A stretch of DNA of 62,766 nt, counting the filler, from Collodictyon triciliatum (taxonomy: Eukaryota), in the NCBI GenBank assembly GCA_043381765.1. It is 7 parts of 7 records of this genome, joined end to end, with 100 filler letters (N's around TTAATTAATTAA, not from the genome) between each part and the next. Parts side by side here need not be neighbours in the genome. Positions count along the whole stretch, not along the records: positions 19,262 to 29,441 come from JBHJMP010002767.1; 6 more parts are not named here. The stretch is one strand, 5' to 3'. The notes below the pieces were generated by a model. It did not search any database. It had not been told where the DNA came from and worked only from the letters and a program-made list of their open reading frames with translations. How positions within the stretch are numbered: the first letter of the stretch is position 1; each line of letters opens with the position of its first letter. Position numbers and translations under genes: made by a program. Below, one piece after another: positions 1,203 through 60,356 of this stretch.

Positions 1203-1950
1203 ATGCCCTACAAAAAATCAAAACATCAACGGTGGGGAGAAACATTAGGCACCACCCACACCCCGCTCACCGCGAGTTGGAGACAAGCACAAACCCCGCA
1301 AGTCCTTCCAAATCACCGCTCTCTAATGCTTGATATCACCAATAGGGAGCTATGGATAGGCACACGCACGGCAAAAGCTGGCAAAGTCTTCCAACAATGC
1401 ACACTTTGCAGCAACGGTGATGTATCCATCGAGCACACATTTGTGCAATGTCCCTTCGCTCAAAAACTGCGGGAAACAGCCGGCGAGATTCTTCGACTGA
1501 CACTCAAGAAGGCTGCGGCTGTTTGTCCAATCCAGGCGATATTTGGGCCTCTGCAACAGCTGCGTCCAGAGGCAAAAACATTCTGGGCAGTGACGCGAGG
1601 CCATTTACTATGGACTATGTGGATAGCACGCACATACTCACGCAAAGCAAGACTCAACAACCAGCCACCCAATTTCCTGATAATATACTGGATGACATCA
1701 TACAAATCTCTTTCCTCAATAGCTTTCTTCGCCACCTGCACGTTCTCTACTACTCAGACGCCGTGAGAAGAGACATGTGGAAAGAGGCTGAGAAAGATAT
1801 TAACCTCGCCTTGTATCTCTCATGCAAGCACAAGACCCTAGCTACAGGCCAAACCGCAGGATGCAGTTGCTGATTACCGACTACTCCGCCAATCACATTT
1901 CATACAGAGCCCATGCGAACGATGGCTAGCGAGTCGCCATCACATCTTCT
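1203..1950 (+). mobile_element. 5'-truncated L1/Tx1-like LINE (family A): ORF2 C-terminal zinc finger plus 3' UTR, frameshifted
   Basis: CTLCSNGDVSIEHTFVQCPFA (zf-RVT-type CxxC..H..C) followed by LLWTMWIAR; close copy at ~46335-46810. Confidence 0.85.
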
Positions 1951-3875: not shown

Positions 3876-4020
3876 GTTATCTCTTCATCTCTTCAATATC
3901 CCTACCATCATACCAGAAGCCAAACAAACCAAAACACTGCATTAAATAACAAAGAGCATCTATCACACAGGCCGCAGCCGACTCTATGCCCTGCGCTCAG
4001 ACAGCGCGACCTCCGGCGAC

Positions 4021-5345
4021 ATGGCACCCACCCGCTTCCTCGGAAGCTTCTCAGACGTAAGCAGCGGCAGCCCAAGCAACACGGGCAGCCACTCGTCAGG
4101 CATCGGGACAGGGACAGGGGCAGGGGCAGGGGCAGGAATAGCAACAGCAGCATCTGTGGGTGTTGGGCGCAGGCGACGCAGCTGGACGCGCGAGGAGGAC
4201 GAGCGACTGACGCACGCAGTGCAGACGCTGGGCAGCGACAGTTGGCAGCGGATTGCGGATGCGATGGGGCGCACGCGGACACGGGACCAATGCTACCAAC
4301 GCTGGGTGCGGGCGCTGCGGCCGGGCATCCGCAAAGGCGCGTGGACCGAAGAGGAAGATGCGATTCTGCGGGCCCGTGTGGAGATCTATGGGGTCGGATG
4401 CTGGCGTGAAATCGCAAAGGGCCTCGACGGCCGGACGGACCAGCAGTGTCGCCGCCATTGGTCTCTCGTCCGCGACAAGAGCCGCACGCAGCATCGCATG
4501 CAGGGCGACAGTCCGACCCATCTGCATCACTCCGACGAGAGTGATGGCGATGCTGATGCTGATGCTGATGGTGAGGAACATCATGATGCCGCCAATGACA
4601 TGGACCTCTGCGTGGACCAGGACGAAGGTGATGCAGCTGCGGTCACCCCGGGTGTTGAGCCGTGTCTGCCTCTCTTTGCCTTTCGCAGCGCGAGTAGGGG
4701 TTCTCGTGTCTGGGCCCTTGATGGTGTGTTTGTTTGTTTGCTTATTTTCGGTGGAAATCGGCATATCTCCTCTCACAGCATATCGACCCCAATGACATTT
4801 GTATTTGATGGCGATGTTGATTTGTTGTTTCTTTTTTCTTTCGTTAGACATGTGTATCTATATGCGTGGAATCACATCTGGTGTGGTAGATTCATATCTT
4901 TATTGCCCGCTCTGTCTCATATGCTCTATCTGATGTATGTGTGATTGTAGACGAATATGATGAGGTCCAAGGAAACCCGATGCTCTCCCTGGGGGTTACA
5001 GGCAGCAGGAAGGCTACAACCGTCCAGAACTCGCTTGTCGATTTGGCAAATATTGCTGCCCGCTTTTCTACTATAGGGCCAGAAAGGGACTCATATTTGC
5101 CCTCCTACCAAGAAGACATCCAACTCCAGTCTGAAGTCCAATCAGCGCCCATCCGCCCTCATCCGATTCACCCACATGCAGTCCCTTTGCCATATGCTAC
5201 AGGGATTCCACACCAGTATTCCTCCCGAATACAAAAACACCACTCTGCACAGGGACAAAGTCAACCCTCAGAGCAGCGCCAGAGTCGAGACTCAAATTCT
5301 GGGGGAACGGGATGGCGTATTTCGATTAGCTCATTGCTCAATTAA
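4021..5345 (+). CDS. Two-repeat (R2R3-type) Myb transcription factor; exons 4021-4651 and 4951-5345
   Basis: SWTREEDERL..W..IA..MGRTRTRDQCYQRW and KGAWTEEEDAIL..W..IA..GRTDQQCRRHW; a phase-1 GT-AG intron joins this to the DEYDE...ISSLLN* exon. Confidence 0.9.
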
Positions 5346-10187: not shown

Positions 10188-10287
10188 NNNNNNNNNNNNN
10201 NNNNNNNNNNNNNNNNNNNNNNNNNNNNNNNTTAATTAATTAANNNNNNNNNNNNNNNNNNNNNNNNNNNNNNNNNNNNNNNNNNNN
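10188..10287. other. Artificial 100-bp scaffold linker N44-TTAATTAATTAA-N44 (also 19162-19261, 29442-29541, 39715-39814, 49989-50088, 60257-60356)
   Basis: Identical structure six times; the core carries stop codons in all frames. Confidence 0.97.
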
Positions 10288-17231: not shown

Positions 17232-18959
17232 TTATGACTTTCTTGTTAAAATGAAGTTAAGAAGTGTCGCGAGACCATCCCGGGCGGGTGACTCTGGGAG
17301 TTTTTCTAGCTGCTCGAGGGCAAGGTCATGATGTTTCTTTGCTAAGTTGAACGTATCGTTGAGAGAGCCAGTCTTTCGAACACTATCGATGACCTAGGGA
17401 TATTCCCAATGTAATTATTTCGAAAACGCTTTTAAAATAATAGCAAAGCCCATACGATTCGTAGCTTCCACAAAATAACATACACATGCATATTACCATA
17501 TCTAAATCTTGTGTGCTATGGAATGCGCCTTCTACAGCTTTTCTTAGTGTAGAATCTTTCGCAAGCGCAAACAATACAGGTGCAGTCACGATTCCTCTGT
17601 TGACAAATGCCAACGAGGCTTTCCCAAACGGAGTTGATGGAGGCGTGTGGTCCAGCATTTCTTCAATAATCTGCAATCGCATTGTATTGTTACAACTGTT
17701 ATGATAAAAAAAATTGCCAGCATATATATTCTCTTTTCTTAAGTTGATGTTAGGAAGGAAGTAGGGGAATCTATCCTCATGATAATACCGCAGCAGGAAA
17801 ATTTCATTTGAGAGTCTCTGTTGATAATTAAAAAAAGCGAAACAAATAAAGAAAAAGAGATTTTTATACCTGATACGTCAACCCGAATTGTTTCCCGAAT
17901 TCATGGGCTATACCAATGAGTTCTTCAGATAAATTCTCGATATGGGCGACAGAGGAGCAAGCGTGCGCCATAAGTGATGCAGTGCGCAAATAAGTTCTCT
18001 TCATGTAATGCTCCATAGAAATAGAGTCTTCCAATGATGACTTTGTTTGAAGGACAGATCCCTCAACAAGGTCAGCGATACCGGTGGAGATAGACTCTGT
18101 GGCCGAGTGAGACTCAATACGCGAAAGCAAAAGCGATGCATGAGTAAGAAGGAAATCCCCAGCAAGGACTGAAAATTTGTTCCCGGGTAATTTATTAGCT
18201 ACATGCGATTTGGTTGAGAATAGAATTATAAATATGCCAAGAACAAAAAAAAAAAAAAAAGTACCTTAGAAATATATTATCACTTACACGTACTTAATTA
18301 CATTGAAAAATGCACACAAGGTTATAACTTTATTTGATTAAGAGTTACATCTTCGATGCTTCTTGGCCTCATGATCGTCCATTATATCCTCATGAAGTAA
18401 AGAAGCTGTATGTATCATCTCTACGATGGGTGCGATTGACCTCTGCCGATGAGTTATTCCAGATTCTGGTATGGATAATTTGCCATTGTTGATAGTGCGG
18501 GACATCAACAAACTCAAGACAGGGCGCACCTTCATAGGAAAATGTCGACTTTGATTTTAAAATATAATAGCAGAAAGTATTATTATTATTATTTTAAAAA
18601 ATCAAGTTAAAGAAGCCGTAAGCATTTTTAACACATTTTCTATATGTTTCTCGTAACTATGAAGTAATATAATGCAAATGAACCCTGTATTGATTATTCT
18701 TAAATTAAAAAAAATACGAGATGTGACAGTTACATTAAATAATAATTCCTATAACCTGCTTCCCTTTCACGGTGAAGTAATATTCTACCGCCTGGGCAAG
18801 AGAAGGGTGCTCTGAAACCACCTCACTTCGAACCTCTTCGACGGCTGCCTCCAATTCATTCCGCACCAACTCAAAGGGATCAAGCCGTAAGCTTTGTTTC
18901 GACCCCAAAGATGCAGATAAGAATGCGCGGTGGAATGAAACATGACGGTTGAGAATTTG
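17232..18959 (-). CDS. Trans-polyprenyl diphosphate synthase-like protein (COQ1/PDSS family) with degenerate DDxxD motifs; start not resolved
   Basis: GKQVRP, EMIHTASLLHEDIMD, GNKFSVLAGDFLL, TYLRTASL, FGLTYQIIEEMLD, TAPVLFA, ..LTRKS* over 5 exons. Confidence 0.9.
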
Positions 18960-19051: not shown

Positions 19052-19161
<110 letters not shown>

Positions 19162-19261
19162 NNNNNNNNNNNNNNNNNNNNNNNNNNNNNNNNNNNNNNN
19201 NNNNNTTAATTAATTAANNNNNNNNNNNNNNNNNNNNNNNNNNNNNNNNNNNNNNNNNNNN

Positions 19262-22200
19262 CAAGCCCGCCTCGAGGAGCTGCTGAATACCAAGCCTGAT
19301 GCTTCCATGAAGGATGTTTCTGTGGAATGGCGCAGTGAAACGAATAGCCGCTTCCCATTCATCGGTGGAATGCCTGGGCTGAGTGTGACTGAATACGAGG
19401 TGAAGTGAATCTCTACATTTTACTATTTATCATTCTTATTAATTACAATTGAAAAATCAACAAATCATTCTCTAAATCATATATTCATATTCAGATTCAG
19501 TACGCCTGTCTGATTGACAAACCAGCGTGCAGCCGCGCCTTCTTCTACCTCCGCGATGAGCAATATGCTGTCGAACATGCCAAGAACGAGGAAGAAAGAA
19601 AGCTATTCCAAGCTGAAAGCGAAGAGGCGGTAAAAATTGATAAAAAGTCTTGTGTTTTGTTTTCGAGTAATATGTTATGTTTATTTAATTATTTAATTTT
19701 TTGACATATATTGTAATGTATTTTTTTTTAGCGTAAGAGGCAGGACGAGCTCAAAGGGAAAGTCAAGGCCAAGTTCGGGCATGTTGTCTACAAGGGAGCG
19801 AAGGAGTATTCTGACTTTGTGACTTACCATCTCACCTACGCCATCAAGCGTGACTTTGGGAAGCAAACTGTATTTTTTTTTGTTTTTTTTATTTTTTAAT
19901 GGATATCAGTATTGATTGGTGATATATATATCATTTATATTTTGTTGACATAACTATATCATAGGTGAGAGACCCTGAAGACCAAGCGCAGCACCAGTTC
20001 AAGATGCATCGACTGGCTGGGTTTGGTGGAAGAAAGGAGCTTCTCAAGACAATCACGGAGCAAGTAAGATAAAGAGCAATTAATTAAAAATGACAATAAT
20101 ATCGTTTGCTATTCTTTTCTTATCTATAATTTATTTTATCAGGCCATGAATCAGCTGAACACCGAGAAGTCCAAAATCATCGTTCTTGCTGCGGAGTCTG
20201 GGATTGGAAAGTCGTCGCTGATGGCTGCTACAGCGAGAGACCTCGAAGGGCTGACGCATCCTGGGCTGCATGTCTTTTTCCATTTTGTCGGATGCACCAA
20301 TCTCAGCAACTACGTGGAAAGGTTATTTTACATTTCTTTTTCTTTTTATAGATATAAATATATTATATAGTTTTTTCTAAAAATATTTGTTTTATATTAG
20401 TGTTTCGATTCGCTTCTGGACTTTGGTCGCAAACTCTGCCAACTTTGTCGAACAAAAGAAGCAAGAAGCTGGTATTACATTATTGTATTTTATTTTTTTA
20501 TTTTTATTCAAATGTCGTATACTTCATGCATTTATTTTATTTTGCCGCTAGAATACGAAAAAGAGGGACTCCAGGGCTTGCTGAAAATAATTCAGGAGAA
20601 AAACAAGTAATACTTCAATTTTTATGTATTTAAATTATAAAATCAAAATTAAAATAATTTGAATCGAATTAAAAATAATTGATATAAAATTATGTTTTAT
20701 AGAGACGAGAAGTTTGTCTTCCTCATCGATGCCATCAACCAAATCCACCCATCGCAAGGAACGCCAGCTCCGCATCTGCTGACCTGGTTGCCCAAGGAAA
20801 CGCCAGCTAATGTTGCCATTGTTGTGTCGACCATTCATACTCATGAATCTTGCGCGGTATTCACCATTTAATATTATTTTTTGTATATGTTTGTATTTTC
20901 TGCATAAAAAATGAATTGAGTAGAACTTTACTAAATGTATCTTTTATAAGTCTGCCAAGCAAAGTGGACTGGAGCCGATTCCTGTCGCCAAGTTGACTGA
21001 GGGCGAAATTAAGGATGGTGTCGAATCCTTCCTCATTCGCTATGACAAGACCCTGAATGAAAAGCAAGTTGGAATGATTCTGGATGACTTTGAAGATACC
21101 GGTGAGACATTTTTTTAAAAGAGTATATATGTTGATAAAAAAAATTTCCAAGCAAAGATTTAGTTATTCTTATGTGATATTTTTTTATAGGCCATCCGCT
21201 CTATCTCCGCATCATTCTGGATGAAGTCAGGGTCTTTGGCGTCTATGAGAAGCTTGATGAAGAACTAAATACTCTGCTTTCAACCAAAGGTGTCATTGAG
21301 CTTTACACTCTTATTATCAAGCGCTGGCAATTGAAGTTTGACAGGAAAGGTGAGTATTGGTTTCATATTTCACAAAAAAAAATGCAAATTATAATTGAAA
21401 TTTTTGTTGAATACTTTTTTTTATTGTACAGTCTCCTCTTCTGATGTAAAAGATACAATGAATATCGAGTATGTCTCCCTCTCGATGAAGGTTCTCTTTG
21501 TCTCCCGCATCGGCCTGAGTGAAGGTGACCTGGACAATTACATGAAAGACGCGATTGGCACAGGATTCGAGCTTGCTGAATGGTTTACTTAGTATTGAAT
21601 TTTAATAGAATGAATAGGCTAACTCTTTCTCTTTTCTCATTTTTTATTTAACTTATCTTTTATCCATTCAAATAGGAAATCCTTCTTCTTTACCCTCATC
21701 GAGTCGCTTTTCGTCCGCAATGGAAGGTTAGTGTTATTTCTCAGTTCTTTTCTTTCGTTAATATGTGTTTTTGGTATTATTTTATTTGGATATAAAACTA
21801 ACTATTGTCTATCATAGATACATGTACTTCCACCAGCTGCTACTGGAGACCACCGAAAAGGTCTACTTCTCCGAAAACCAGGAGATGGAAAAAACGCACG
21901 AAAAATACGGAAAATGGCTGTTTGGCCAGTATTCTGAGGCTGCTGACGCGGATGAGGAGCTTGCTGCTGAAATATGCTACCAGCTTCTGAAGGGCAGTTC
22001 GTTTGACTTGCTTGTCGAATACATGAAGCAAAAACATGTAATTTCTATTTTTATTTTGAGTCATAATGAGACGATTTTCACTGATTAATTTAAATATTTT
22101 ATAGGTTATCAGCATCATGCTTGGTGGTCGCTATCGCTACGAGTTCTTTACGTGCTGGAGAGCAATCAACGCAAGTGGAGCGGCGAACTACAAAGAAGCC

Positions 22201-25200
22201 TATGGAAGCTTGGCTAAGGTATTTTACTATTTATTTTAATTTTTTGAAGGTTACTACTCACAATTTTAATTATTAATCATGATTTATCTATTAATTATTG
22301 TTTTTTTCAGTCTTTGGATAATGTGGGAGACCTGCTTGTTGGATTTTTCTTGGAGTCTTTTGAGAACTCGTTCTTGTTGTCTGTTCTGAATGTGCGTCTT
22401 GGAAAGCATCAAACAGAAGGTATGCAATTTATTGTTAATTTTTGAAGAATTTATGTCATGAATATGAGTTTATATATAGATATGTTCAATAATCTATTAA
22501 ATCATAGATGCGAAGGCTGCTGATTACCTAAATCTCGGTCGTGTCTACAAGAACCTCCAAAAGTAAAAAAAATTAAAAAAATCAATGATATAATTAAGAA
22601 ATGACATGATGTGTATTATGCAAACTTTTCTAAAGTAAAAATCAATTAAACAGCTGGGCTGAATCCATAGTCTACTACAAGAAATGTCTCAATTCAGTCG
22701 AGAAAAATGCTGATGATTCCCTGCGTATTGCCACCATTCATGAAGAGATGGGAATCGTCTACCAGCAACAGGATAAGTAAGGCTCGCCTTCAACTGTAAA
22801 ATATATTATGAATAATGTTTCAAAAAGGAATTATTCTGATTTTTTTATGAAATAGAATTGATGAGGCTCTCGATGAATACAAGAAATCACTGGACTTGAG
22901 AATCAAACAACTGGGCGAGAATGACTTGCAAGTGGCCCAATCACATGACCGCTTCGGAGACATATATGTGAAACAGTCAAAGTAATAATTGAATCATTTA
23001 TATTCACTAATATTCTGCTTTTTTTTGTAAAAACAAATAAACGTTGATCAATTTTTTATGATAGGAATGAGCAAGCTCTGGTTGAATATGAAAAAGCCAT
23101 GGAAATCCGCCAAAAGAAAGTCGGAAACGAGCATCCTCTTGTCGCAACATCGTACCAGAACTATGGTCATGTCTCTCTGGCTGCGAAAAAGTGGCATATT
23201 TGTCCATAAAAGGCAGTTTTAAATACAGCTATGATAATTTTGAGAAATATTAATATGATTGAATCACCAAGGTATGAAGATTCTATTGTTAACTACGAAA
23301 AGGCAAAATCAATCCTTGATAAATCACTGGGAGCTAAGCATGCATCTGTTGCCTCGACAATCCAGTTTATTGCGAGTGTTCATCTTGCCAGTGGAAAGTT
23401 CGAATTTTATTATTTTTTTTTAGATATTTTCATATAATAATTATTTCTTTCAATCAATTTTTGCAAGATAGTTTGGATTCATATATTTCATTCGTGTGGA
23501 CTCTATTTAGGGTTAAAATTATGCATAAGATAATTTTAACAGATGTATTAAATATCAAAACTATCGCGTTTTATAGGAAAACTGAGGCCTTATCGTCATT
23601 AAAGCAATCGCTGGATATTTTCATGTCTGCCCTGGGTGAAAATCATCCGAATGTTGTGGCCTGCTATGAGATGATTGGAGACATCAGCCATGATTTGAAG
23701 GAGTATCTCTTTTTATCAATTATATTATTTTTTATTTTGAATTGAAAACAATAATTTATTTACCCATATTATCATCCTAGCTTCAAGGATGCTTTGGAGG
23801 CCTATACAAAGACGCTGGATATTCGCTTGAGAACACTGGGCGAAAAGCATGCTGATTATGCTACTGCCCTTGAGAATGTTGGCCGAACAAACTTTGAGCT
23901 TCAAAGGTTTATTTCTCTTTATATTGAAAAATCGAATATTTTGATTAACACTAGTAAAAAAACATCAATAATAACTAATCAGCATGCATTTAGTTCTGCT
24001 CAATGTGTTGATTGCTTTCAGAAGGCAGCTGCTATCAGAAAGGAGACAAAGACTGCCATATCATTGAAAGAAGGTTCACAATGTACAAGAATTGCGAAAA
24101 TTATGGGAGACAAAAAAGAGCATGAAGCTGTCACTCAGCTTTACAAAACAGCTGCTGTTAGAAATGGTGAAAAGTCATCCTATGAAAACTGGGACTGCTG
24201 GGTGGCTTGTGAGAATGCAGACAAGATTTACAAGGAACTGAAGCAGCATAACGAAGCTGTGGCATTCTGGGGTGACATGAGAGACAGATTTTCTGATAAA
24301 CTCGCATGGATTCACCCCAGAACATTGAACGCATGCGAATACTTGTCCGTCCATTCAAAAGAAATCAGAATCAATAAAGAGCCCGCCGAGTATACAAGAG
24401 TCAAGGATTTCATCAGTGAAGCTCTTGATGGTGTCAAACTGGATGAGAAATGGAATCGTGAGCAAATCATCGCGTCATTATTCAGAATTGTCTACATGTC
24501 AAAGACTGATGAGAGCAAGTCAAAGGCTGCATCTGATGCAATTACGCTTTTGAATTTCATGAATGTTTCGTTTGGTGGGATGGATTTATCAAACATCAAA
24601 ATTCCAAATGCAAATCTCAGTAACTCAATCCTTGATGGTGCAAACTTTGCTGGTGCCGACTTGGATGGTGTTGATTTCACGAATTCGATGCTTGGTGATA
24701 GTGTTTTTGATAATGCGAATATGAATAATGTGAAATTCGGAATTCCTCATGATAAATTGGAAGGTCATAAATTTACTGTCACCAGTGTTTGCAGTTTTCT
24801 AGGACCGAATGGTGAAAACTGGTTGGCTTCTGGAAGTAGGGATAATACAATACGCATTTGGGATGTAGCCACAGGAAACCAAATCAAAACATTAAATGGG
24901 CATACAGGTGTTGTCTTGAGTGTTTGCAGTATTCAAGGACCGAATGGTGAAAAGTGGTTGGCTTCTGGAAGTCGGGATAAAACAATACGTGTTTGGGATG
25001 TAACCACAGGAAAACGAATCAAAACATTAGAAGGACATACAAGTTATGTCAATAGTATTTGCAGTATCCAAGGACCGAATGGTGAAAATTGGTTGGCTTC
25101 TGGAAGTGATGATAAATCAATACGTATTTGGGATGTAAACACAGGAAACCAAATCAAAACATTAAAAGGTCATACAGATCGTGTCAGAAGTGTTTGCAGT

Positions 25201-26748
25201 ATTCAAGGACTGAATGGTGAAAAATGGTTGGCTTCTGGAAGTGATGATAAATCAATACGTATTTGGGATGTAAACACAGGAAACCAAATCAAAACATTAG
25301 AAGGTCATACAAGGGATGTCTATAGTGTTTGCAGCATTCAAGGACCGAATGGAGAAAAGTGGCTGGCTTCTGGAAGTGATGATAGAACAATACGTGTTTG
25401 GGATGCAGCCGCAGGAAACCAAATCAAAACATTAGAAGGTCTTAAAAATTATGTCAGGACTGTTTGCAATATCCAAGGACGGAATGGTGAAAATTGGTTG
25501 GCCATTGCTAGAAGTAAAGATAAAACTATACTTATTTGTGATGTAGCCACAGGAAACCAAACACACAGCCTGCAAAAGTCAAAGGTGACCTACACCCAAG
25601 GAAAATACCTTGTCAAGAAAGAAAAGCCAGACGAAGTCATCGCAGTATTCAACAGAACAAGTGATGCGATGAACAAGATTGACACCAACAAAATCCAAGA
25701 TGCAAAGACAGTCCAGATTATCGGCCCAAGAAAGCTGCAAGGTGGAAGCATCCAAATTAGAAATGTCACAAGATTGAGTCAATTCAACAAATCCCTCCTA
25801 CTTTCTGTTGGTGCTGCTTCCTTTGATGCGGACTTTGTTGCCTATTGTGAGCAGAGTAAGTTCACAAAGTTCCTGGCTCAAATGAAGGCTGAATGGTACG
25901 AGAATGGATCGAGTGTGGAGATGGACTCTGAGAAAGAAGCCGAATGGTTCAAGAGGGCTGAAAACTATGATAATGATTATGATGATGAAGACGAAGATGA
26001 CAAAGACGGAAATGAAGTTGAAAATGAGGAAGAAGAAGACGGAAATGAGGATGAAAATGATGAAGAAGACGGAAATGAGGTTGAAAATGAGAAAGAAGAC
26101 GGAAATGAGGATCAAAAAGAGGAAGAAGACGAAAATGAGGATCAAAATGAGGAAGAAGACGGAAATGAGGATGAAAATGATGAAGAAGACGGAAATGAGG
26201 TTGAAAATGAGAAAGAAGACGGAAATGAGGATCAAAAAGAGGAAGAAGAAGACGAAAATGAGGATGAAAATGAGGAAGAAGACGGAAATGAAGTTGAAAA
26301 TGATGAAGAAGACGGAAATGAAGTTGAAAATGAGAAAGAAGACGGAAATGAGGATCAAAAAGAGGAAGAAGAAGATGGAAATGAGGATCAAAATGAGGAA
26401 GAAGAAGACGGAAATGAGGATGAAAATGAGAAAGAAGACGGAAATGAGGATGAAAATGAGGAAGAAGAAGACGGAAATGAGGATGAAAATGAGGAAGAAG
26501 ATGAAGATGAGGATGAAAATGAGGAAGAAGAAGACGAAAATGAGGATGAAAATGAGGAAGAAGGCGGAAATGAGGATGAAAATGAGGAAGAAGACAGAAA
26601 TGAGGTTGAAAATGAGGAAGAAGACGAAAATGAGGATCAAAATGAGGAAGAAGACGAAGATATGGATGAAAATGAGGAAGAAGACGAATATAAAGAAAAC
26701 GAGGATGAGGAAGAGGGGGAATGGGAAGACGAAGAATATCGCAGTTGA
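19262..26748 (+). CDS. NLR-like STAND protein: DUF4062 - NACHT - TPR array - pentapeptide repeats - WD40 x6 - Sel1-like repeat - acidic tail (5' truncated, 23 exons visible)
   Basis: SVTEYEIQYA..FFYLRD; Walker A AESGIGKS; FFHFVG; Walker B FVFLIDAINQ; WLP; HPLYL; 42-aa TPRs; ANLSNSILDGANFAGADL; GH..V.SV..LASGS.D..IRIWD. All 22 introns are GT-AG and keep frame. Confidence 0.92.
24755..25560 (+). repeat. Six 135-bp near-identical WD40-coding tandem repeats
   Basis: GG(T/A)GAAAA.TGG.TGGC motif at 24811, 24946, 25081, 25216, 25351, 25486. Confidence 0.95.
25965..26735 (+). repeat. 30/33-bp coding minisatellite (DGNEDENEEE-type acidic tail)
   Basis: GACGGAAATGAGGATGAAAATGAGGAAGAA variants in tandem. 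Confidence 0.95.
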
Positions 26749-29359
26749 GCGGAGACAGAAAGTCTCAGCTAAACATGGTAAGCAATGTAAACAAAAGAAT
26801 ATCAATATACATTCTTTAACTATAATCATCTTAGATAAGGAGATTCCCAAGGGGTTTTAAAGTAGACCTCTGCTTTTTTCCAGAAGGATATCCCATAAAA
26901 ACAGAATAAAACAATAAAAATAAAAGCAAAGCTATCTGATATTTATTGAAATTCTTCTTTTCTCTTTTCTCTTTTCTCTTTTCTCTTTTCTCTTTTCTCT
27001 TTTCTCTTNNNNNNNNNNNNNNNNNNNNNNNNNNNNNNNNNNNNNNNNNNNNNNNNNNNNNNNNNNNNNNNNNNNNNNNNNNNNNNNNNNNNNNNNNNNN
27101 NNNNNNNNNNNNNNNNNNNNNNNNNNNNNNNNNNNNNNNNNNNNNNNNNNNNNNNNNNNNNNNNNNNNNNNNNNNNNNNNNNNNNNNNNNNNNNNNNNNN
27201 NNNNNNNNNNNNNNNNNNNNNNNNNNNNNNNNNNNNNNNNNNNNNNNNNNNNNTTTCAGCGTTCTGATGTTTTGCCGTGACAGCTGCCCTTCACTCAACC
27301 ATCCTTCATCCGCCGTCCTTCTCAATCTTTTCTTTTTGTCCTGAAGGACACTCAACACTAGCCGCCGATCGACTTGCTTGTGCATTTATTGGTCTTTCTT
27401 GGCAACCACAAGGCATATTTTCAGCCGATCACCAGTCGATTCTCTCACACGCTCGACCCAAGGTTCATTCCCTCTCTTATTCCCACAATCAACGAGAAGT
27501 TAATAAGAAAGCCTTTGATGGAACAGCAATTATGGTTGTCTGAATCAATACTCATCATTTATCTTTTTGTTTTCATATGATGAACTGCATACACATTGCC
27601 GATCAAACATATAGCTATATTTTTTTAATATTATTTTCTCTATTTTGTTCTTATTACTTTTTTTCTTCTTGGAATAACGCCACGAGGATCGAAAGCGCTG
27701 GCTCGAAGCAAACACACAACCGAACGCAAGAACGGAGCCCTCCGCTCGACCAAAGGTTCCTAGCCACACCTAATCGCCCACAAAGAGCGCCCGGAAGCAG
27801 AACCTGTACGGAGCCGGCTGCCACGTCCGCCTTCGAGGTAAGCACAAACTGCCCAGAACTACCACGCCCACATACAGGTAAGGAAAGAATAAGCCCAGTC
27901 CTGAAAGATCTTGAGTGCCATAATGAGATGACTATGAACCAGCTATTCGATCAACTTCAGGAATACACAGCAACCTTTCCAAAACAAATAATTGCAGAGA
28001 CGAGAGTAAAATAATACTTAACTGCTTTTTTTTATGTCTCCATAACGAGAGAGGCCAGCTCTTTTGCTACCCATTATCAGCCGCATTCCTCCGAGCTTCA
28101 TCAAGGGCGACACTGAAGGTACGTGAAAAACAACAAACAACTCATCTTCACAGTATTCTCCAAGGGTCAAAATGTGTTTTTGATGAATGAAGCGCTGAAC
28201 AAGAATACAACATCAGAACTACCCAAAGTATAAAAAAAATTATATGTAAAGTTTCCCTTCTCTATTTCGTGCTCTGTCCCAGAACACAAGGGAAAAGTCA
28301 AAAGAAAATATCATGGTAAACACCGCCACAAATACTAACAGAACGAGCTGTCAATCATAGGAAGACAATGTCATCCCTTTTAAACCCAACCACCCGGAGC
28401 TATGGAAGAATAAGCATCGCTCAAGCAAGAAGCAACTCATACAAGAGCTTTCCAAAAAGAGCGGGCGGATTCTTCGAGACGCGCCTCACACTAAAACAGT
28501 CTGGACAAGCAATTCAAGGTACAATAGTATGTAGCCAAAATTATTTTCATTTTCATGCTAAATGAAAGTTTACTTTTTCACTCGAATAGTATTAGTATAC
28601 AAGGATAATTCCTAACGAAGATTATCTTTCATGATTTGTCTGTTAATGCAAGGCACTTTTGGAAAAAAACGCTTCCGTTGAATGAAAGGCAAGCACCTAA
28701 GCCTGCAAAACTTAAGCGGTGGTGGTTTGGTTTTTTTTTATCCCACGTTAAGCCTTCACGATGAAAATCTCAGGCTTTAATTAACGGAGAGTAGTCCACG
28801 AGTATCGGTATTACAATTTTATTTTGTTTGTGAATTTGTCATTCTGTGGGAATATACTAACCATCACATATAATTTGGGACATTTGCACAATTTCGATTA
28901 GATTCAAAGGAATTATATAAGTCGACCTGGAAGAATATCAATCTATTATGCAGACTTTCATACATCACATTTGTTATATTATACGAAATATTTAGCATTA
29001 AGAGAATGTTTAGTGGCTGTATGATACATAAGCAAATCACATCCATATTATTTACAAAAAAGCAACTAAAAAAGCATAGAATTAATTTCAACTTGATATA
29101 TATTTGTATTCACGAATAGTTTATTTCATAATAAATAAAAATATTAAGAGTTGTAATATTGAGCTATGAGCTTTAATACAATATAATCTTATTAGCCTAT
29201 CGAAATTATCTAAAAAGCATTCAAAATATGAATCGATAAATCAAACAATATCTATTCATGAAAAAGTAGGATAACTTGGTTGATAATTGGCGCATATTAT
29301 AACCCATGAATACGAATTTTTTTATACAACACACAGAAAGAAATAGGAAGATTCAAAAC

Positions 29360-29416
29360 ATGTCTGCAACCGAAACAAGCACCGAGGCCAACGTCAGCCT
29401 TGTCACCATTGACGAA
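29360..29416 (+). CDS. Possible first exon of an unidentified gene cut by the scaffold end
   Basis: AAAACATG context, MSATETSTEANVSLVTIDE, then GT; coding-like composition. Confidence 0.35.
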
Positions 29417-29849
29417 GTCTGTACAAATGCATACATTATCTNNNNNNNNNNNNNNNNNNNNNNNNNNNNNNNNNNNNNNNNNNNNTTAATTAATTAANNN
29501 NNNNNNNNNNNNNNNNNNNNNNNNNNNNNNNNNNNNNNNNNTTTTCTTTTTTTGTTTCTTTTTTTGTTTCTTTTTTTGTTTCTTTTTTTGTTTCTTTTTT
29601 TGTTTCTTTTTTTTGTTTCTTTTTTTTGTTTCTTTTTTTGTTTCTTTTTTTGTTTCTTGCTTTTTGTTTCTTGCTTTTTGTTTCTTGCTTTTTGTTTCTT
29701 GCTTTTTGTTTTCTGGTTTATCGTGCTCTGTGTGTGTTTATCAGTCACGCAATTAGTTTGTGGGTAAAGGCACAACTCATGCCCATATTCTCACGCCACT
29801 TTATATACCTGTTACCTACTTTTACTAAAGAATAATAATCTATTGCCAG

Positions 29850-36380: not shown

Positions 36381-37083
36381 AACAAAAAATAAATCAAGCA
36401 CGCATAACCACACGCGATATACCAGGCTTTTCTTTTTTACTTGACCACAACAGAAGCATATCTCGAAAGAAGCCACTCTGTGAACAGACAATCATGCAGT
36501 TGGTCTCCCAACAAAGGAATATTGGGTGATGGATAAGAGAAAGGGAAATATGATATTAATGGAATGCATCGAATATGGGAAGTCATGGTTATATCGGACT
36601 TTTTTGATTTTTTATTTGCATGAACGCCGTCACTGTTTTCTCCAAAACAAAAGACAGGCAACAATCTTTCGACCGCGCTTGTTTTTTCAAGAAAAGGCCG
36701 CCTTCGTTGTCTGTCAAGACCTGGGAAGTTTGGTGTGGGGTTTTGGGGTGGATGGGTTATATTTCTTTGACAAGAAAAACTATGTTCGATTCCCAGCGAG
36801 ACGCAGCCATTTCTTTTTAAGATGGCGCGCCGCGAATTTCGGTACTGTTTCCGTATGTGGAACACACAGAAATTCCTGCAATTTGTCTGACACGTTGGGG
36901 GAGGCCAAATTTGTCCATAAACGGGAGAGGATGACAGCTGGAGGCTACTGTCATGTTCGCTGGGCACAGAGTCGCGACGGGGCTTTTGCGGGGGCATGGG
37001 ACAGGGAAAAAGGGAGTGGGTCTGCAGCGCGTTTATCAGCCGGGCGGAAGGGGCAGCCTCCAAAGGGAGGAGGGGAGGAGGAT

Positions 37084-37824
37084 TTAGACGTTTGCGCAGG
37101 GCCCGGCCGGGGTGCGGTAGGCCTCCGGGACGCCGAGGAGCCAGTCGCGGGCGTCCCACTGGGCAGCCTCGCCGACAAAGTAGGAGAAGGGCGGCAGGGC
37201 AGCGTAGGGCCAGTCGCGGGGGGCGTCTGGGCAGACGAAGCGGTCGCGGGGGACGGAGCCTGTGATGCGGACGTTTGCGCAGGAGTGGTATGTGGAGAAG
37301 CAGGTGCCGAGGGGCTCCTGGCAGGTGGTGCAGGAGGCATCGTACGTGCAGTTTGTGAGGCCGAGGGCGGGCAGCTTGTCGGTCATGGGGTTGACGAGCT
37401 GCAGGGCGCAGCGGTCGCACTGGACGTCCGGAATCACCACGGTGATGCGCGAGCGCGTGTACGAGGCCTCCACGCCAAAGACGGGCGCGTTGGTGTCGTC
37501 GTGCGGGATGTGGTTGAGCAGCAGGCAGCTCTCGTACGAGTCTGTGCCCTCCAGCGAGAGCGCAATGCGGAACGGCGCCCCCGTGTGCGCAATCGACTCC
37601 TCAAAGACAAGCGTGTTCGGCCCCGGCGCAAGCGTCACGCTCGGCCCGCTGAAGTCTCCCGTCTGCGATCCGCACGGGCCTGTCTTGATCCCCGTGCTGC
37701 TGCTGCGCGGTGCAGGGCACACCCACCGCGAGTGTCCCGCGCACGGCCCTGCCGCGTGCAGCGCAACTGCCACCAGAAGCGCCGTGGCGGCTGCAAGGTA
37801 GGAGCCTCTCTGTCTCTGTAGCAT
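37084..37824 (-). CDS. Secreted, intronless LPMO-like copper histidine-brace protein (SCE4755-family-like), 246 aa
   Basis: Signal peptide ending CAG then His1 (HSRWVCPAPR), KTGPCG, EESIAHTG..RIAL, PDVQCDRCALQL, YHSCANV. Confidence 0.8.
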   Translation of the reverse strand: MLQRQRGSYLAAATALLVAVALHAAGPCAGHSRWVCPAPRSSSTGIKTGPCGSQTGDFSGPSVTLAPGPNTLVFEESIAHTGAPFRIALSLEGTDSYESCLLLNHIPHDDTNAPVFGVEASYTRSRITVVIPDVQCDRCALQLVNPMTDKLPALGLTNCTYDASCTTCQEPLGTCFSTYHSCANVRITGSVPRDRFVCPDAPRDWPYAALPPFSYFVGEAAQWDARDWLLGVPEAYRTPAGPCANV

Positions 37825-38186
37825 GGCTGCCCTCGTGGTTCTGCCTGGTCGGTGCCCTCCCGCGTTAATAAAAACACGCCTTGTTCTTTTATTGCTTTCA
37901 TATTCTGTTTTTTTGTTTTGTTTTGTTTTTTTATGTATTCTATTGGGGAGCTGCATCCCGCTCAAGTTGCCGGCGTAGGCCAGACAGCTCATTGCAGGTT
38001 TGAGGGGTGACTCGCGTATCTTCGTTTTTGTTTGTTTGTTTGTTTGTTTGTTTGTTTGTTTGTTTGTTTGTTTGTTTGTTTGTTTGTTTGTTTGTTTGTT
38101 TTTTTTTTGGTTGGCTGGTTGGTCTGATCAGCAGGTTGCCAAGCGCGGCGTGAAGATGAGCCTCCAAGACCGCGTGGAATGTGTTC

Positions 38187-38818: not shown

Positions 38819-38984
38819 TCATACCCTGCACTGTTACCTCGGGCCGCAACAACGCCACCTAGGACCGCATCGTCGATTCCTTGGGTGGAATGGCGAGATG
38901 GAGACAAACAAAATCGCATCATCGAAGAATCAAACCCCTCATGGTCGATAAATGCTCTCTAGCCACATCAATCTACCACTCAAA

Positions 38985-39714
38985 GGGTGCATCGTCCTGG
39001 AGCAGAATCTCAAACAACCCGGTCGCTACAAAGACAGAGCGGGGTGTATCAAGGCTGCCCACTTGCACCACTGCTCTTCAACTTTGTCGCTGACTGCCTT
39101 GCAAACCACTTCCGAAACGAAAACAAGGTACGCAACCAACTGCTACTTCAATATGCAGACGACACAGCATTCATCTTGCGGTCTCCCGAAGGCGCCACAC
39201 TCGCCAACAAATGCATGCAAGAATACACACGAGCTGTCGGCGGGAAAATCAACTATGACAAGACAGATGGAATTCTTTTTGGGTTTCAGGATGGACTTAT
39301 GTTTCCAGGAAACATTGTGTGGAAGTCACCGTCACATCCACTCAAGTATCTTGGTATCATATTCGGTCCACAATCGGATAGCAAATGGACAAGCCTGGTT
39401 GAGGACATCAAGTCGAAAATATCAGTGTGGAGCAACTTTCATCTCTCGGACGTGGGGAAAGTAAGGTTGTGGAATCAAGTGATGCTGTCGACCCTTATCT
39501 ACAACATGAAAGGCACTTTGCTGAATCCCCAAAGGCTGAAGGAGCTGGAAGACATCTGCCGCAACTTCATCACTACGAATAATCAAAAATATAAAATCAA
39601 GACGCTCTCTAAGCCACCTACGGAGGGAGGACTGGGACTCATAACGCCTGGCATTGCATGGACATCACTCACGATGAGATGGTGGACAGATATGCTTACC
39701 CATCCGAAAGGATT
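38985..39714 (+). mobile_element. L1/Tx1-type LINE reverse transcriptase fragment (cut by scaffold end)
   Basis: GVYQGCPLAPLLF, QYADDT, KINYDKT, KYLGI, PPTEGGLGL. Confidence 0.95.
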
Positions 39715-40020
39715 NNNNNNNNNNNNNNNNNNNNNNNNNNNNNNNNNNNNNNNNNNNNTTAATTAATTAANNNNNNNNNNNNNNNNNNNNNNNNNNNNNN
39801 NNNNNNNNNNNNNNCTTTTCTTTTCTTTTCTTTTCTTTTCTTCTCTTTTCTTCTCTTTTCTTCTCTTTTCTTTTCTTTTCTTTTCTTTTCTTTTCTTTTC
39901 TTTTCTTTTCTTTTCTTTTCTTTTCTTTTCTTTTCTTTTCTTTTCTTTTCTTTTCTTTTCTTTATTCTGGATTTGCACACTATGTTGCGGGTAAGGCTTT
40001 CTTCAAATAAAAATATGTAG

Positions 40021-49988: not shown

Positions 49989-50088
49989 NNNNNNNNNNNN
50001 NNNNNNNNNNNNNNNNNNNNNNNNNNNNNNNNTTAATTAATTAANNNNNNNNNNNNNNNNNNNNNNNNNNNNNNNNNNNNNNNNNNNN

Positions 50089-50367: not shown

Positions 50368-52505
50368 ATGTGCATCCTCATGAGAGTTTCGGTTTGTGCT
50401 CTTTTATTGCTTGCCACAACATCCTCAGCAGACGTTTTTTTCGAGGACGCCTTTACAGATGGAGGTGGAGTCACACATTATGAAAACCAATATACTTATT
50501 CATTTAGCCATAATTCTTTTTTCCTTTCTTTTATCTTTTTTCTTTTTTCTTTCTTTTATTCACGACAGCCTTCGATTACCAAATCATTTATGTTTTCTGA
50601 CTCGTTTATTCTCTCTCAATTCGTTTACTCAGATGGGTGGAAATCCCGATGGATTCAGTCCACTGCAGAGAAAGAAAAGTTTGGTGAGTTTAGGTTGAGT
50701 GCTGGGGAATTCTATGCCAACGAGGAACAGGATAAGGGTACTTGAATAATCTTGATAAACATATTATAAATTAAAAGAGACCGAGAGACTGAGAGACCGA
50801 GAGAGAGAGAAAGGAATGAGGCATTTACTCGCAATACATATTCATTCTTATACGCGAGCTATATTCCGTGGAATCAGATGTACTAATCGAAGACCTGGGT
50901 TAGGTCTCATGCCTGTTGGAAACCACCATCAGTTTGCGATTGCATCGCGATTCACGCCATTCACAAATGAAGGAAAGGAGCTAATTATCCAATATACAGT
51001 CAAGCACCAGCAAAAACTTGACTGTGGTGGAAGGTTTGTACATGATGTGTCCAACTTATACGAATATCAATTTGTTCATTTTATTTATTTATTATCACCT
51101 CCCAATTAATGGGTTGTATATTTTCTTTTCTTTTTATTATTCTTTTTTTTTTTTTTACCCTGATACATCGTTGATATGAGAGTTACGTCATTTTTTATAT
51201 AATTTTTTTTGTACAAAACTTTGCAAATTTGTAAGAAAAACGAGTAATATTCATTTGTGCATAGTTATATCAAGCTGTTCCCGTCAAGCACAGATGTATC
51301 AAAGCTACGCAAAAAGACAAAATTTTCACTCATGTTTGGCCCTGACGTCTGTGGCGAACAAGACCAAAAGATTCACATCATATTCAACTACAAAGGCAAG
51401 GAGGCCAAATGGAAAAAGAAGATGAATTACGATAACGACGAGTACACTCACGTCTATTCCCTTCGGTTATTCCCGAACAACACATACACTGTAAACATCG
51501 ATGGTCGAAACAGAGAACATGGCTCTCTGGAGAAGGACTTTAACTTTACCATTCCACTTACCATTCTAGATCCAAATGCAAAGAAACCTGACGTAAGATA
51601 TGTTTTGACATGCATTCGTACCCTAGACACAACACCTCTTTTTACGCTTTATCTTTTTAGTGGCAATATTTTTCAGCATATCATCCTATATTTTTTTTCC
51701 TTTATTCGATTCAAAGTGTAGCGAGGTTATGCCAGCATATCATCATATATTATTGTTTTTATTTTACAAACCTGTCATTTCCGTATAGGACTGGGATGAT
51801 AGAAAGTATATACCCGACCCGGAAGATAAGAAGCCGGCAAATTGGGACAGCGTCCCTGAGAAAATCCCGAAACCTGACGCCAAAAAGCCTTTTACCTGGG
51901 ACGATGATATTCACGGCACATGGAGAGCACCCATGATTCCGAATCCAAAGTATAAAGGAGAGTGGAAGGTTTATTCTTTACATACTCATTTATCTTTTCA
52001 CAGATACGCAATCAGAATTACAAATACACATTTATAGGCAGCCAAGCTCCCTAATCCAAACTACAGCGGGACATGGGAGCGACCGAGAATCCCTAACCCA
52101 GAGTACCCAGACGAGGCCAAAGACTACTATGTTCTTCGAGACATTGGCGCCATCGGAATAGAGATTTTGCAGGGCCGCGCAGGCTCCGTCTTTGACAACT
52201 TCCTGATTACAGACGAGTGGGCTCTTGCGCAGCGGTTTATCGACAAAGTCTACAAGCCTATGAAAGCCAAGGAGGGAGAAATGCTGGAGTCTATCCGATA
52301 CATGCGCGCTCAGCGAATGCGTGTCGAGGCCTACTTGAGCGGCGAAAGCAGTGAGGATGACTTTGATGAAACAGAGTACGATGATGGTTTTGATGACACC
52401 CTAGATGAGGTCACAGACATCCCCGAGGAAGAGCGCGAGTTTGCCGAGAATCTGGCCAGACAACTGCTTGGAAATCCAGCAAAGCGCAGTCATGACGAGC
52501 TATGA
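50368..52505 (+). CDS. CALR: Calreticulin (divergent), 6 exons
   Basis: Signal peptide, [35 protein letters not shown]-domain KPDDWD/GEWK repeats, FDNFLITD, C-terminal HDEL. Confidence 0.95.
51692..51732 (-). mobile_element. LINE family-B 3' tip in a calreticulin intron
   Basis: 18-bp TSD 51674-51691/51733-51750 (1 mismatch). Confidence 0.87.
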
Positions 52506-60029: not shown

Positions 60030-60356
60030 TAAAACGATATAACTGCAAACTAGAGCTTCTTGCGCTTCACCATTCTTTCTATAATGTAATGTTTCCTCTT
60101 TTCCTCCTTTTTTCCTCCCTTCCTTTCTTCTACGTTATAATGGTCTCTTCTTTCTTTTCTTTTTTTCTTTTCTTTTTTTCTTTTCTTTTTTTCTTTTCTT
60201 TTTTTCTTTTCTTTTTTTCTTTTTTTCTTTTCTTTTTTTCTTTTTTTCTTTTCTTTNNNNNNNNNNNNNNNNNNNNNNNNNNNNNNNNNNNNNNNNNNNN
60301 TTAATTAATTAANNNNNNNNNNNNNNNNNNNNNNNNNNNNNNNNNNNNNNNNNNNN

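Follow-up and report, generated by a model that had tools for sequence, protein, structure and literature searches.

Sections of three recent preprints describe DUF4062 as a TIR-like domain, named NIR or TeTIR, that hydrolyses nicotinamide adenine dinucleotide (NAD+) and is hence an NADase (10.64898/2026.09.21.753143; 10.64898/2026.09.04.749371; 10.64898/2026.05.01.722283). According to these sections, the domain stands directly before the NACHT module of TEP1, NWD1, NWD2, TTC41 and NPHP3, and it serves as effector in bacterial Avs and in further proteins of defence. Its role as the NADase effector of NACHT proteins was recognised only in 2026, and the eukaryotic members are described there with WD40 or TPR repeats. 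Here we analyse a gene from the protist Collodictyon triciliatum that joins such a head to both repeat types. The gene lies on the JBHJMP010002767.1 part (19262-29441) of a 62,766-nucleotide (nt) stretch of assembly GCA_043381765.1, referred to below as the window. The original prediction had read it as a chimeric NLR-like receptor with two sensor types on one NACHT module.

Further described systems bear on the comparison. For TEP1, the catalytic glutamate is named as E1008, together with R942 and C959, in the available part of one preprint (10.64898/2026.09.21.753143), and a search of EukProt v3 for the NIR domain is described in part of another as giving thousands of matches (10.64898/2026.09.04.749371). 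Fungal NLRs of the HET-E/HNWD type, as covered by excerpts of two papers, carry a NACHT module and near-identical WD40 units that differ at few positions and vary in number (PMC4986451, PMC2873952); the highly conserved repeats of fungal NLRs have, in the same excerpts, a unit identity above 85% (PMC4986451).

Our reading, to which we assign a probability of about 0.6, is that the Collodictyon locus is a real, intron-rich gene whose product belongs to the TeTIR/NIR (DUF4062)-NACHT STAND family (TEP1, NWD1/2, TTC41, NPHP3), carries a composite C-terminus and acts as a ligand-gated, NADase-armed switch, with immunity as the favoured role. It is carried by the domain architecture, by the conservation of the catalytic glutamate, and by the splicing of the gene, for which contigs from relatives or paralogues provide support. 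In the C-terminal part, a TPR arm that looks fixed is followed by a pentapeptide beta-helix, by a WD40 propeller whose blades were recently homogenised, and by a Sel1-like end.

Gene model and splicing

A single gene of 23 exons occupies positions 19262-26748 (+ strand) and begins at the very first base of its scaffold. The spliced frame encodes 1828 amino acids (aa) and is free of stops until the TGA at 26746-26748, according to a scripted check of the manually read model. All introns (22/22) are bounded by GT-AG; they measure 67-179 nt and have a GC content of 0.20. All 22 are crowded into the first 4.7 kb; the last 2.75 kb, from 23994 on, is free of introns. The features that define the ends and the doubtful places of the model are:

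19162-19261, no strand: scaffold linker (N44-TTAATTAATTAA-N44), cutting the 5' end of the gene at 19262
19262-19399, 19495-19629, 19732-19869 and 19965-20063, + strand: exons 1-4, C-terminal half of the TeTIR/NIR head
23907-23993, + strand: intron 22, 87 nt, GT-AG, in frame and stop-free, so that the open reading frame (ORF) also reads across it

The 5' break is an assembly edge, because it falls exactly on the scaffold linker. Six identical N44-TTAATTAATTAA-N44 linkers occur in the window (10188-10287, 19162-19261, 29442-29541, 39715-39814, 49989-50088 and 60257-60356). The window consists of separate scaffolds of ~10.2 kb each (one of ~8.9 kb), and adjoining pieces are not necessarily neighbours in the genome.

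The nearest database relatives of the gene are unannotated EukProt transcripts of the collodictyonid Diphylleia rotans, among them P0001 (EP00002_..._P032243). Searches of the window by tblastn with the N-termini of P0001 and two further Diphylleia proteins, P0122 and P0124, returned no missing 5' end, and no paralogue of the gene was found elsewhere in the 62,766 nt. Model residues 1-1179 align with residues 470-1641 of P0001 in one collinear segment (51.3% identity over 1183 columns), and the alignment extends to model residues 3-1451 at 50% identity. The one spliced frame of the original prediction was confirmed by the model and by this alignment, which also decides both doubtful places: intron 22 is spliced out, and exon 6 reads SVSIRFW. 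At the position of intron 22, P0001 has no insert, and the loose end of one contig (run X2, see below) passes from the last letters of exon 22 to 24007 over 13 intervening letters, a length that agrees with the model. Reading exon 6 in another frame (CFDSLL...) was dropped, as this required non-canonical splice sites and P0001 has SISIRFW there.

A single ORF (23755-26748), containing neither N nor stop, holds the unit that follows the last clear TPR, the linker, the pentapeptide repeats and the WD40 array. A mis-join near 24300, which had been named as a threat to the prediction, was not found: this ORF spans the passage from TPR to WD40, and the same stretch is matched collinearly by four Diphylleia transcripts. 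The GC content at third codon positions (GC3) has values of 0.61, 0.56, 0.46 and 0.43 along the upstream parts of the gene, followed by 0.33 in the pentapeptide block, 0.25 in the WD40 array, 0.51 after it and 0.27 in the tail. Given this shift and the absence of introns from 23994 on, the pentapeptide-WD40 cassette may have a history of its own.

Splicing was assessed with RNA-type contigs from four runs, of which X19 and X20 are freshwater metatranscriptomes, and X1 and X2 are small runs whose RNA nature is guessed. Across the four runs, 505, 411, 196 and 44 contigs were aligned, 90-99% alike to the locus. Among the joints listed, spliced contigs support at least 16 of the 22 introns (1, 2, 4-8, 10, 12-16, 18, 20 and 22). 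Contig joints fall at introns 1, 2, 4, 5, 7, 8, 12, 13, 14, 15 and 20, one contig spans intron 10, and loose ends of contigs carry on into the following exon at introns 5, 6, 7, 16, 18 and 22. Three misfit joints (21575 to 21694, 21743 to 21900 and 22394 to 22527), found among the 15 joints listed of 71, are non-canonical and probably derive from paralogues. One joint in an X2 contig (24769 to 25317) skips 547 letters with 7 letters between; the net loss of 540 nt equals four 135-nt WD40 units, and the contig may stem from a relative with four fewer units or from a collapse of the repeats during contig building.

Across the passage from TPR to WD40, contigs lie at 24022-24147, 24343-24500 (0 differences) and 24395-24685, and all X1 depth bins are filled. 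In X1 and X2, the summed contig depth over 24617-25381 and 25637-25891 is 5-15 times that of the NACHT and TPR parts. This excess may fit many genes with a common WD40-post-WD40 cassette, depth not being the same as copy number. Over 25892-26401 the contig depth is low; no conclusion follows from the low or missing coverage of the tail.

The predicted NADase head and the NACHT-like NTPase

The N-terminal part of the protein as it stands in the window comprises a TIR-like head followed by a nucleoside triphosphatase (NTPase):

19262-20063, + strand: TeTIR/NIR (extended DUF4062) TIR-like NADase domain, C-terminal half (exons 1-4); the N-terminal half lies beyond the scaffold edge
19397-19399, + strand: GAG codon of the catalytic Glu equivalent (TEP1 E1008), the second Glu of SVTEYE (19385-19399) and last codon of exon 1
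20143-22419, + strand: NACHT-like P-loop NTPase with helical/winged-helix extension (exons 5-15)
20200-20214, + strand: Walker A GIGKS (in AESGIGKS), in agreement with the GxxxxGK[ST] pattern
20719-20742, + strand: Walker B FLIDAINQ (in FVFLIDAINQ), as read from the sequence
from 21191, + strand: GHPLYL at the start of exon 10, as read from the sequence

Model residues 1-170 are 61% identical to residues 470-640 of P0001. In that protein, Pfam detects a CH domain at 191-277 (E-value 6.5e-11) and DUF4062 (PF13271) at 379-470 (42.0 bits, cut-off 24.7), and residues 370-643 match the TeTIR crystal chain of TEP1, 11gz_A (E 2.7e-16). P0124 matches the same chain over 218-356 (E 3.2e-15). Exons 1-3, each searched alone, gave no Pfam match, because the Pfam model spans only the N-terminal half that is missing here. 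The DUF4062-like head that had been predicted is thus present as the extended domain, with the Pfam DUF4062 core itself placed upstream of the scaffold edge.

The SVTEYE motif of P0001, identical to that of the Collodictyon gene, aligns to SVTEME of 11gz_A, and the Collodictyon Glu is assigned transitively, via P0001. P0001 also has the RWG-loop Arg and the conserved Cys (R942 and C959 in TEP1) and the FxSST start of strand beta-A; the corresponding part of the Collodictyon gene lies beyond 19262. The head directly precedes the NTPase, with model residues 1-170 located before the Walker A motif at residues 190-194, as is characteristic of the family.

The three NTPase motifs of the original prediction (AESGIGKS, FVFLIDAINQ and HPLYL) were all found, and the NTPase is 60% identical to that of P0001. 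Scored exon by exon, Pfam returned NPHP3_N (E 0.0013) and NACHT (E 0.0095) for exon 5 and NACHT (E 0.11) for exon 8; the single-exon NACHT (PF05729) scores are 16.2 and 12.8 bits. The Walker B signature of NACHT proteins is given as D[GAS]hDE in the available part of one study (10.1101/2022.07.19.500537). We call the module NACHT-like because its scores are sub-threshold and because this signature is only partly matched. All three full paralogues (P0001, P0122 and P0124) have D-A-V-N-Q at the corresponding position. Judged from its residues, the DAINQ motif of Collodictyon would suit a switch with slow or absent hydrolysis.

The composite C-terminus

Behind the NTPase, the following elements succeed one another:

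22508-23906, + strand: TPR array of six 42-aa units of kinesin-light-chain type (exons 16-22; the last five units are one 126-nt exon each, in the same phase)
23994-24561, + strand: all-alpha, TPR-like helical linker of ~190 residues at the start of the last exon
24562-24741, + strand: pentapeptide-repeat beta-helix (PF00805, 45.7 bits, cut-off 20.2, E 4.6e-12)
24756-25561, + strand: WD40 array of six 45-aa units, the sixth degenerate
25562-25959, + strand: post-WD40 module of ~130 aa, ending in one Sel1-like repeat (AEWYENGSSVEMDSEKEAEWFKRA, 25888-25959)
25960-26748, + strand: acidic, D/E/N/G-rich low-complexity tail of ~260 aa, closed by the TGA at 26746-26748

TPR_12 (PF13424) was the top match in 5/5 unit exons tested, with scores of 18.5-29.7 bits against a cut-off of 30.1 and E-values from 7e-7 to 2e-3. 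The aligned region of P0001 scores 142 bits for TPR_12 and 91 bits for TPR_10, with TPR_NPHP3 remaining sub-threshold. Among themselves the Collodictyon units share a mean identity of 23% (5-40%); between paralogues the array is 40-44% identical, unit for unit. We regard the TPRs as an old, fixed arm, because the units have diverged from each other yet are conserved between paralogues.

The linker has no Pfam match. Its AlphaFold2 model (23995-24591) consists of 10 helices, with a predicted local distance difference test (pLDDT) score of 88.4 and a predicted template modelling (pTM) score of 0.83. The best Foldseek matches of this model are the TPR domains of kinesin light chains, and they are weak (E 2e-3, template modelling score about 0.4). 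About eight TPRs had been predicted, a fair estimate for six 42-aa units followed by a TPR-like helical linker.

In addition to PF00805, Pentapeptide_4 and Pentapeptide_3 match the pentapeptide block, and AlphaFold2 predicts regularly spaced single-residue strands for it (model residues 61-115). The WD40 family (PF00400) scores 173.9 bits over five stretches of the adjoining array, in which Tandem Repeats Finder (TRF) detects a period of 135 nt in 5.9 copies with 84% matches. The AlphaFold2 model shows six clean four-stranded blades and a weak seventh (pLDDT 81); closure of the propeller by this seventh blade is uncertain. Foldseek retrieves seven-bladed propellers of the WDR5 type (E 2e-23). 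The pentapeptide repeats and the six WD40s bear out the original prediction, as does the acidic tail described below.

Among the first five WD40 units, identity is 81-91% at the DNA level and 71-84% at the protein level. Differences between units are spread evenly over site classes, with mean proportions of 0.142 at synonymous (pS) and 0.148 at nonsynonymous (pN) sites and a pN/pS ratio of ~1.04. The variation gathers in columns 5-7, 9, 28, 30-31 and 37-39; from the general structure of WD40 repeats, we take these to be mostly loop positions of the top face. The within-gene identity of the units, 0.69, is the highest of 10 genes compared (0.31-0.59 in the others), and their number is 6 here and about 7-19 in paralogues. 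By its sequence the WD40 array looks diversifiable. Of the two independently diversifiable sensors that had been proposed, the WD40 array is therefore retained as a candidate, and the TPR array, conserved as it is between paralogues, is not.

A phmmer search with the post-WD40 module against 1.84 billion representatives gave 34 matches. Seven of these cover the whole module (P0126, P0001, P0002, P0129, P0130, P0132 and P0140). Most others cover only query residues 110-140, in 4-13 stretches each, and 3/3 that were checked are Sel1-repeat proteins with 11-16 repeats. Pfam Sel1 (PF08238) was not detected in the module at E<=0.1; the relative P0129 has a weak Sel1 match (20.3 bits) at the aligned place. 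The single Sel1-like repeat of the original prediction stands in so far as its motif draws Sel1 proteins in phmmer, without recognition by the Pfam model at that threshold. All named relatives of the module are from Diphylleia, and two further matches are short contigs.

The tail is encoded by a 30-nt minisatellite (26003-26686; TRF, 22.2 copies, 86% matches). All six frames are open in this region, so that the coding status of the tail follows solely from the continuity of the ORF. P0001 and P0132 do not have it and end about 10-15 aa past the Sel1-like repeat.

Relatives and comparison with known systems

When the last exon was searched with longer proteins as targets, 4807 of 7997 scored candidates reached E <= 0.001. 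Among the 120 matches listed, only P0001 (83%) and P0002 (70%) cover more than 59% of the exon. For the core of P0001 (residues 470-1640), five of 7036 candidates pass, four of them Diphylleia rotans EukProt transcripts and one a weak TPR match. Within these 7036 candidates the core is shared only by Diphylleia proteins, and the gene is not the common, conserved single-copy gene that had been considered as an objection to the prediction.

Four Diphylleia proteins, P0001, P0122, P0123 and P0132, have the same collinear domain order as the Collodictyon protein, at identities of 50%, 40%, 42% and 47%. They share the NACHT-like NTPase (with DAVNQ in Diphylleia), the kinesin-light-chain-type TPRs, the helical linker, the pentapeptide block, the WD40 array, the post-WD40 module and the Sel1-like end. 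Their WD40 units are more numerous and less uniform (0.31-0.47 against 0.69 here), and the acidic tail is absent. The two that are full length, P0001 and P0122, start with CH-DUF4062. No CH domain ahead of the NADase head is reported for TEP1/NWD in the available passages of the preprints.

Paralogues with different C-termini, which the original prediction had suggested looking for, do exist in Diphylleia. P0124 comprises the head, the NTPase and a long TPR array only, and P0002 has the TPRs, linker, pentapeptide block and WD40 array with no NTPase match. P0130 carries another NACHT (Walker B DDFDD) in front of the same pentapeptide-WD40-post-WD-Sel1 cassette. P0123 bears an extra, different C-terminal extension.

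The protein resembles TEP1, NWD1 and NWD2 in having a TIR-like NADase head directly before a NACHT-type NTPase, C-terminal WD40 propellers and a conserved catalytic Glu, RWG loop and Cys (the loop and Cys via P0001). It differs from them by the TPR arm and pentapeptide block inserted between NTPase and WD40, by the Sel1-like end, the acidic tail and DAINQ, and by having no TROVE/VWA. With TTC41 and NPHP3 it shares the head and NTPase followed by kinesin-light-chain-type TPRs, P0124 representing the TPR-only form; in contrast to TTC41 and NPHP3, the TPRs continue here into pentapeptide and WD40 repeats. NPHP3 has no catalytic Glu, according to parts of the 2026 preprints, whereas the Collodictyon protein keeps it.

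A pentapeptide block directly before WD40 repeats also occurs outside this family, in NACHT proteins of Reticulomyxa filosa (P0024, P0104 and P0113), Mortierella, Mycoavidus/Glomeribacter and cyanobacteria; their identity to model residues 1071-1438 is 38-41%. By itself this pair is widespread, being present in 28/125 proteins compared, including those of Reticulomyxa, Mortierella and Mycoavidus. These NACHT-pentapeptide-WD40 proteins have other NACHT modules and no TPR arm, and no TeTIR head was detected in them.

The original prediction had assumed that STAND proteins usually carry one type of superstructure-forming repeat. This is no rule: 4/4 prokaryote-type STANDs examined (P0044, P0042, P0082 and P0097) combine an NTPase with a beta-propeller and TPRs. 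In them the propeller stands between the NTPase and the TPRs, so that the two repeat kinds follow in the opposite order; their TPRs belong to a different type, and a pentapeptide block separating propeller and TPRs was not observed. The TPRs of these proteins were detected with NCBIfam and did not match the 42-aa TPR profile made here. The units of the Collodictyon WD40 array also differ from those of fungal HET-E/HNWD in length, 45 aa rather than 42, and in being 71-84% identical in protein.

A literature search for the NACHT-TPR-WD40 combination returned nothing relevant, only papers on Gemin5 and IFT172. A search for Diphylleia together with NACHT likewise returned nothing relevant, and phrases denoting mixed repeats are absent from PMC12258605 and from the excerpts of PMC4986451. 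Because these searches found no combined architecture, we rate the protein as a new variant. TPR and WD40 repeats in series would be new for the TeTIR/NIR-NACHT family and are not unprecedented among STANDs; the Diphylleia proteins may already figure in Table S5 of 10.64898/2026.09.04.749371, among the EukProt NIR matches.

Proposed mechanism and alternative explanations

By its predicted domains, the protein has the architecture of an effector, a nucleotide-binding oligomerisation domain and a repeat sensor, and the presence of a TIR-like NADase head strengthens the reading as effector, switch and sensor. If the protein works like APAF-1, TEP1 and the NIR-Avs proteins of bacteria, its repeat region would keep the NTPase off. 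A ligand, most probably bound where the WD40 propeller varies, on its top face, would release it. The NACHT-like module would then oligomerise and gather the TIR-like heads, and the gathered heads would hydrolyse NAD+, with cell death, dormancy or a signal as the result. The NADase activity, the ligand, the oligomerisation and the biological role in this scheme are predictions by analogy with related proteins. Immunity or non-self recognition would be the favoured role. The immune receptor candidate put forward by the original prediction thus persists as a STAND architecture with an NADase head, to which family resemblance lends the presumed role.

Several points weigh against an NADase-armed immune switch. 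The N-terminal half of the NADase domain lies outside the window, and retention of the Glu is by itself no proof of NADase activity, which is accordingly a predicted one; in the parts of the 2026 preprints available, in vitro tests of four human family proteins at full length showed activity for TEP1 alone. Scores for the NTPase come solely from single exons and from its homologue P0001, in which it falls just below the cut-offs (nSTAND1 26.1/27.1, NACHT 24.4/26.7 and NPHP3_N 22.3/24.8 bits). The NACHT Walker B signature is not matched in full: D-A-I-N-Q keeps its first three positions and has N-Q in place of the acidic pair. In addition, we saw no sensor-1 Arg in STIHTH by our own reading of the sequence. 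The module may therefore not cycle as a normal NACHT would. The WD40 units, at 71-84% aa identity, remain below the fungal level of more than 85%. The paralogues are old (40-53% identity), with no recent burst. The best share of sampled words in any public run was 0.15, and the contigs, 90-99% alike, are not this locus itself. As contigs of close relatives or paralogues, they support the splicing of this kind of gene, not the expression of this copy or of its acidic tail. Finally, the roles of other family members are non-immune or unknown.

Some of these points would equally suit a non-immune function of the same protein. It could be a housekeeping or structural STAND scaffold, of the kind proposed for NPHP3 in cilia, TEP1 in vaults or NWD1 with the purinosome, in which the TPR and WD40 repeats provide fixed docking and a degenerate NTPase only binds nucleotide. 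The CH domain before DUF4062 in P0001 and P0122 suggests a cytoskeletal address, all copies have the NQ-type Walker B, and the TPR arm and NTPase are 40-62% identical between old paralogues. The mammalian relatives are of non-immune or unknown function in the parts of the 2026 preprints and of PMC7186558 available, and the in vitro activity of TEP1 alone also fits a scaffold. A mere scaffold is harder to reconcile with a head that keeps residues of an active NADase (catalytic Glu, RWG Arg and Cys, the latter two via P0001), with WD40 blades that are homogenised, have pN close to pS and vary in number among paralogues, and with the swapping of C-terminal cassettes between paralogues, which is more typical of recognition families. 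We consider the scaffold less probable, though a serious alternative, and give it more weight than the two explanations that question the gene itself. One of these holds that two adjacent genes (one NACHT-TPR, the other pentapeptide-WD40) or two mis-assembled pieces have been read as one, as the abrupt end of the introns, the fall of GC3 in the pentapeptide and WD40 parts and the fragmented, gapped assembly might suggest. The uninterrupted ORF from the unit after the last clear TPR to the WD40 array, the contigs over the junction and the filled X1 depth bins, and the collinear crossing of that junction by P0001, P0122, P0123 and P0132, which are independent and come from another organism, make such an artefact extremely improbable. 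The other takes the locus for a decaying or truncated, non-functional copy, broken at its 5' end and with a runaway minisatellite for a tail. The 5' half of the head is indeed absent from the window, the relatives have no tail, and the contig depth over 25892-26401 is low; the break, however, falls exactly at the scaffold linker, and 1828 open codons and 22 intact splice sites would hardly be expected of a decaying gene, so that we hold this explanation to be very unlikely.

Within the reading as an NADase-armed switch, a two-tier organisation of the receptor can be proposed, tentatively and with considerable doubt. A conserved NADase-NACHT-TPR chassis would be combined with an exchangeable pentapeptide-WD40-post-WD-Sel1 cassette that shuttles, inside a single protist lineage, from one NACHT chassis to another that is unrelated, its blades being renewed by unit duplication and conversion. 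P0130, with the cassette behind another NACHT, P0002, with the cassette and TPRs and no NTPase, and the GC3 of the cassette (0.25-0.33 against 0.43-0.61 elsewhere) are consistent with this idea. If it is true, this exchange would be a protist counterpart, armed with a TIR-like NADase, to the way in which NLR-like repertoires of fungi and bacteria swap sensors.

Taken alone, the gene is a modest addition to the catalogue and establishes no new principle. Together with its Diphylleia relatives it offers a natural hybrid in which the roles of a fixed arm and of a variable ligand face could be separated, and its NQ-for-DE Walker B could be used to ask if hydrolysis is required in switches of this type. 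It also bears on the exchange of sensor cassettes in protists and on the question whether lineages other than animals and bacteria use NAD+ depletion as a cell-autonomous response.

Other features of the window

The scaffold preceding the gene, with an (AAT)n run at its end (about 19064-19161), carries polyprenyl synthetase exons (PF00348, E 8e-19) at 17867-18265 (- strand), probably extending to about 18959. Retroelement remains are present in two places, as a zf-RVT domain ORF at 1203-1763 (+ strand; E 2e-6) and as an RVT_1 reverse-transcriptase fragment at 38963-39712 (+ strand; E 8e-14) that is cut by the scaffold end. A GC-rich island (36437-38127, both strands; GC 0.54) holds overlapping ORFs of 345-445 aa, among which a 347-aa minus-strand ORF has no Pfam match. 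At 51248-51718 and 52038-52502 (+ strand) lie two exons of the calreticulin/calnexin family (PF00262, E 8e-22 and 8e-11); for the second, a collection of 5.8 billion proteins yielded no close relative and one weak match. An ORF at 3946-4941 (+ strand) encodes two Myb DNA-binding repeats (PF00249, E 5e-30); it is GC-rich and flanked by long CT/TC low-complexity runs.

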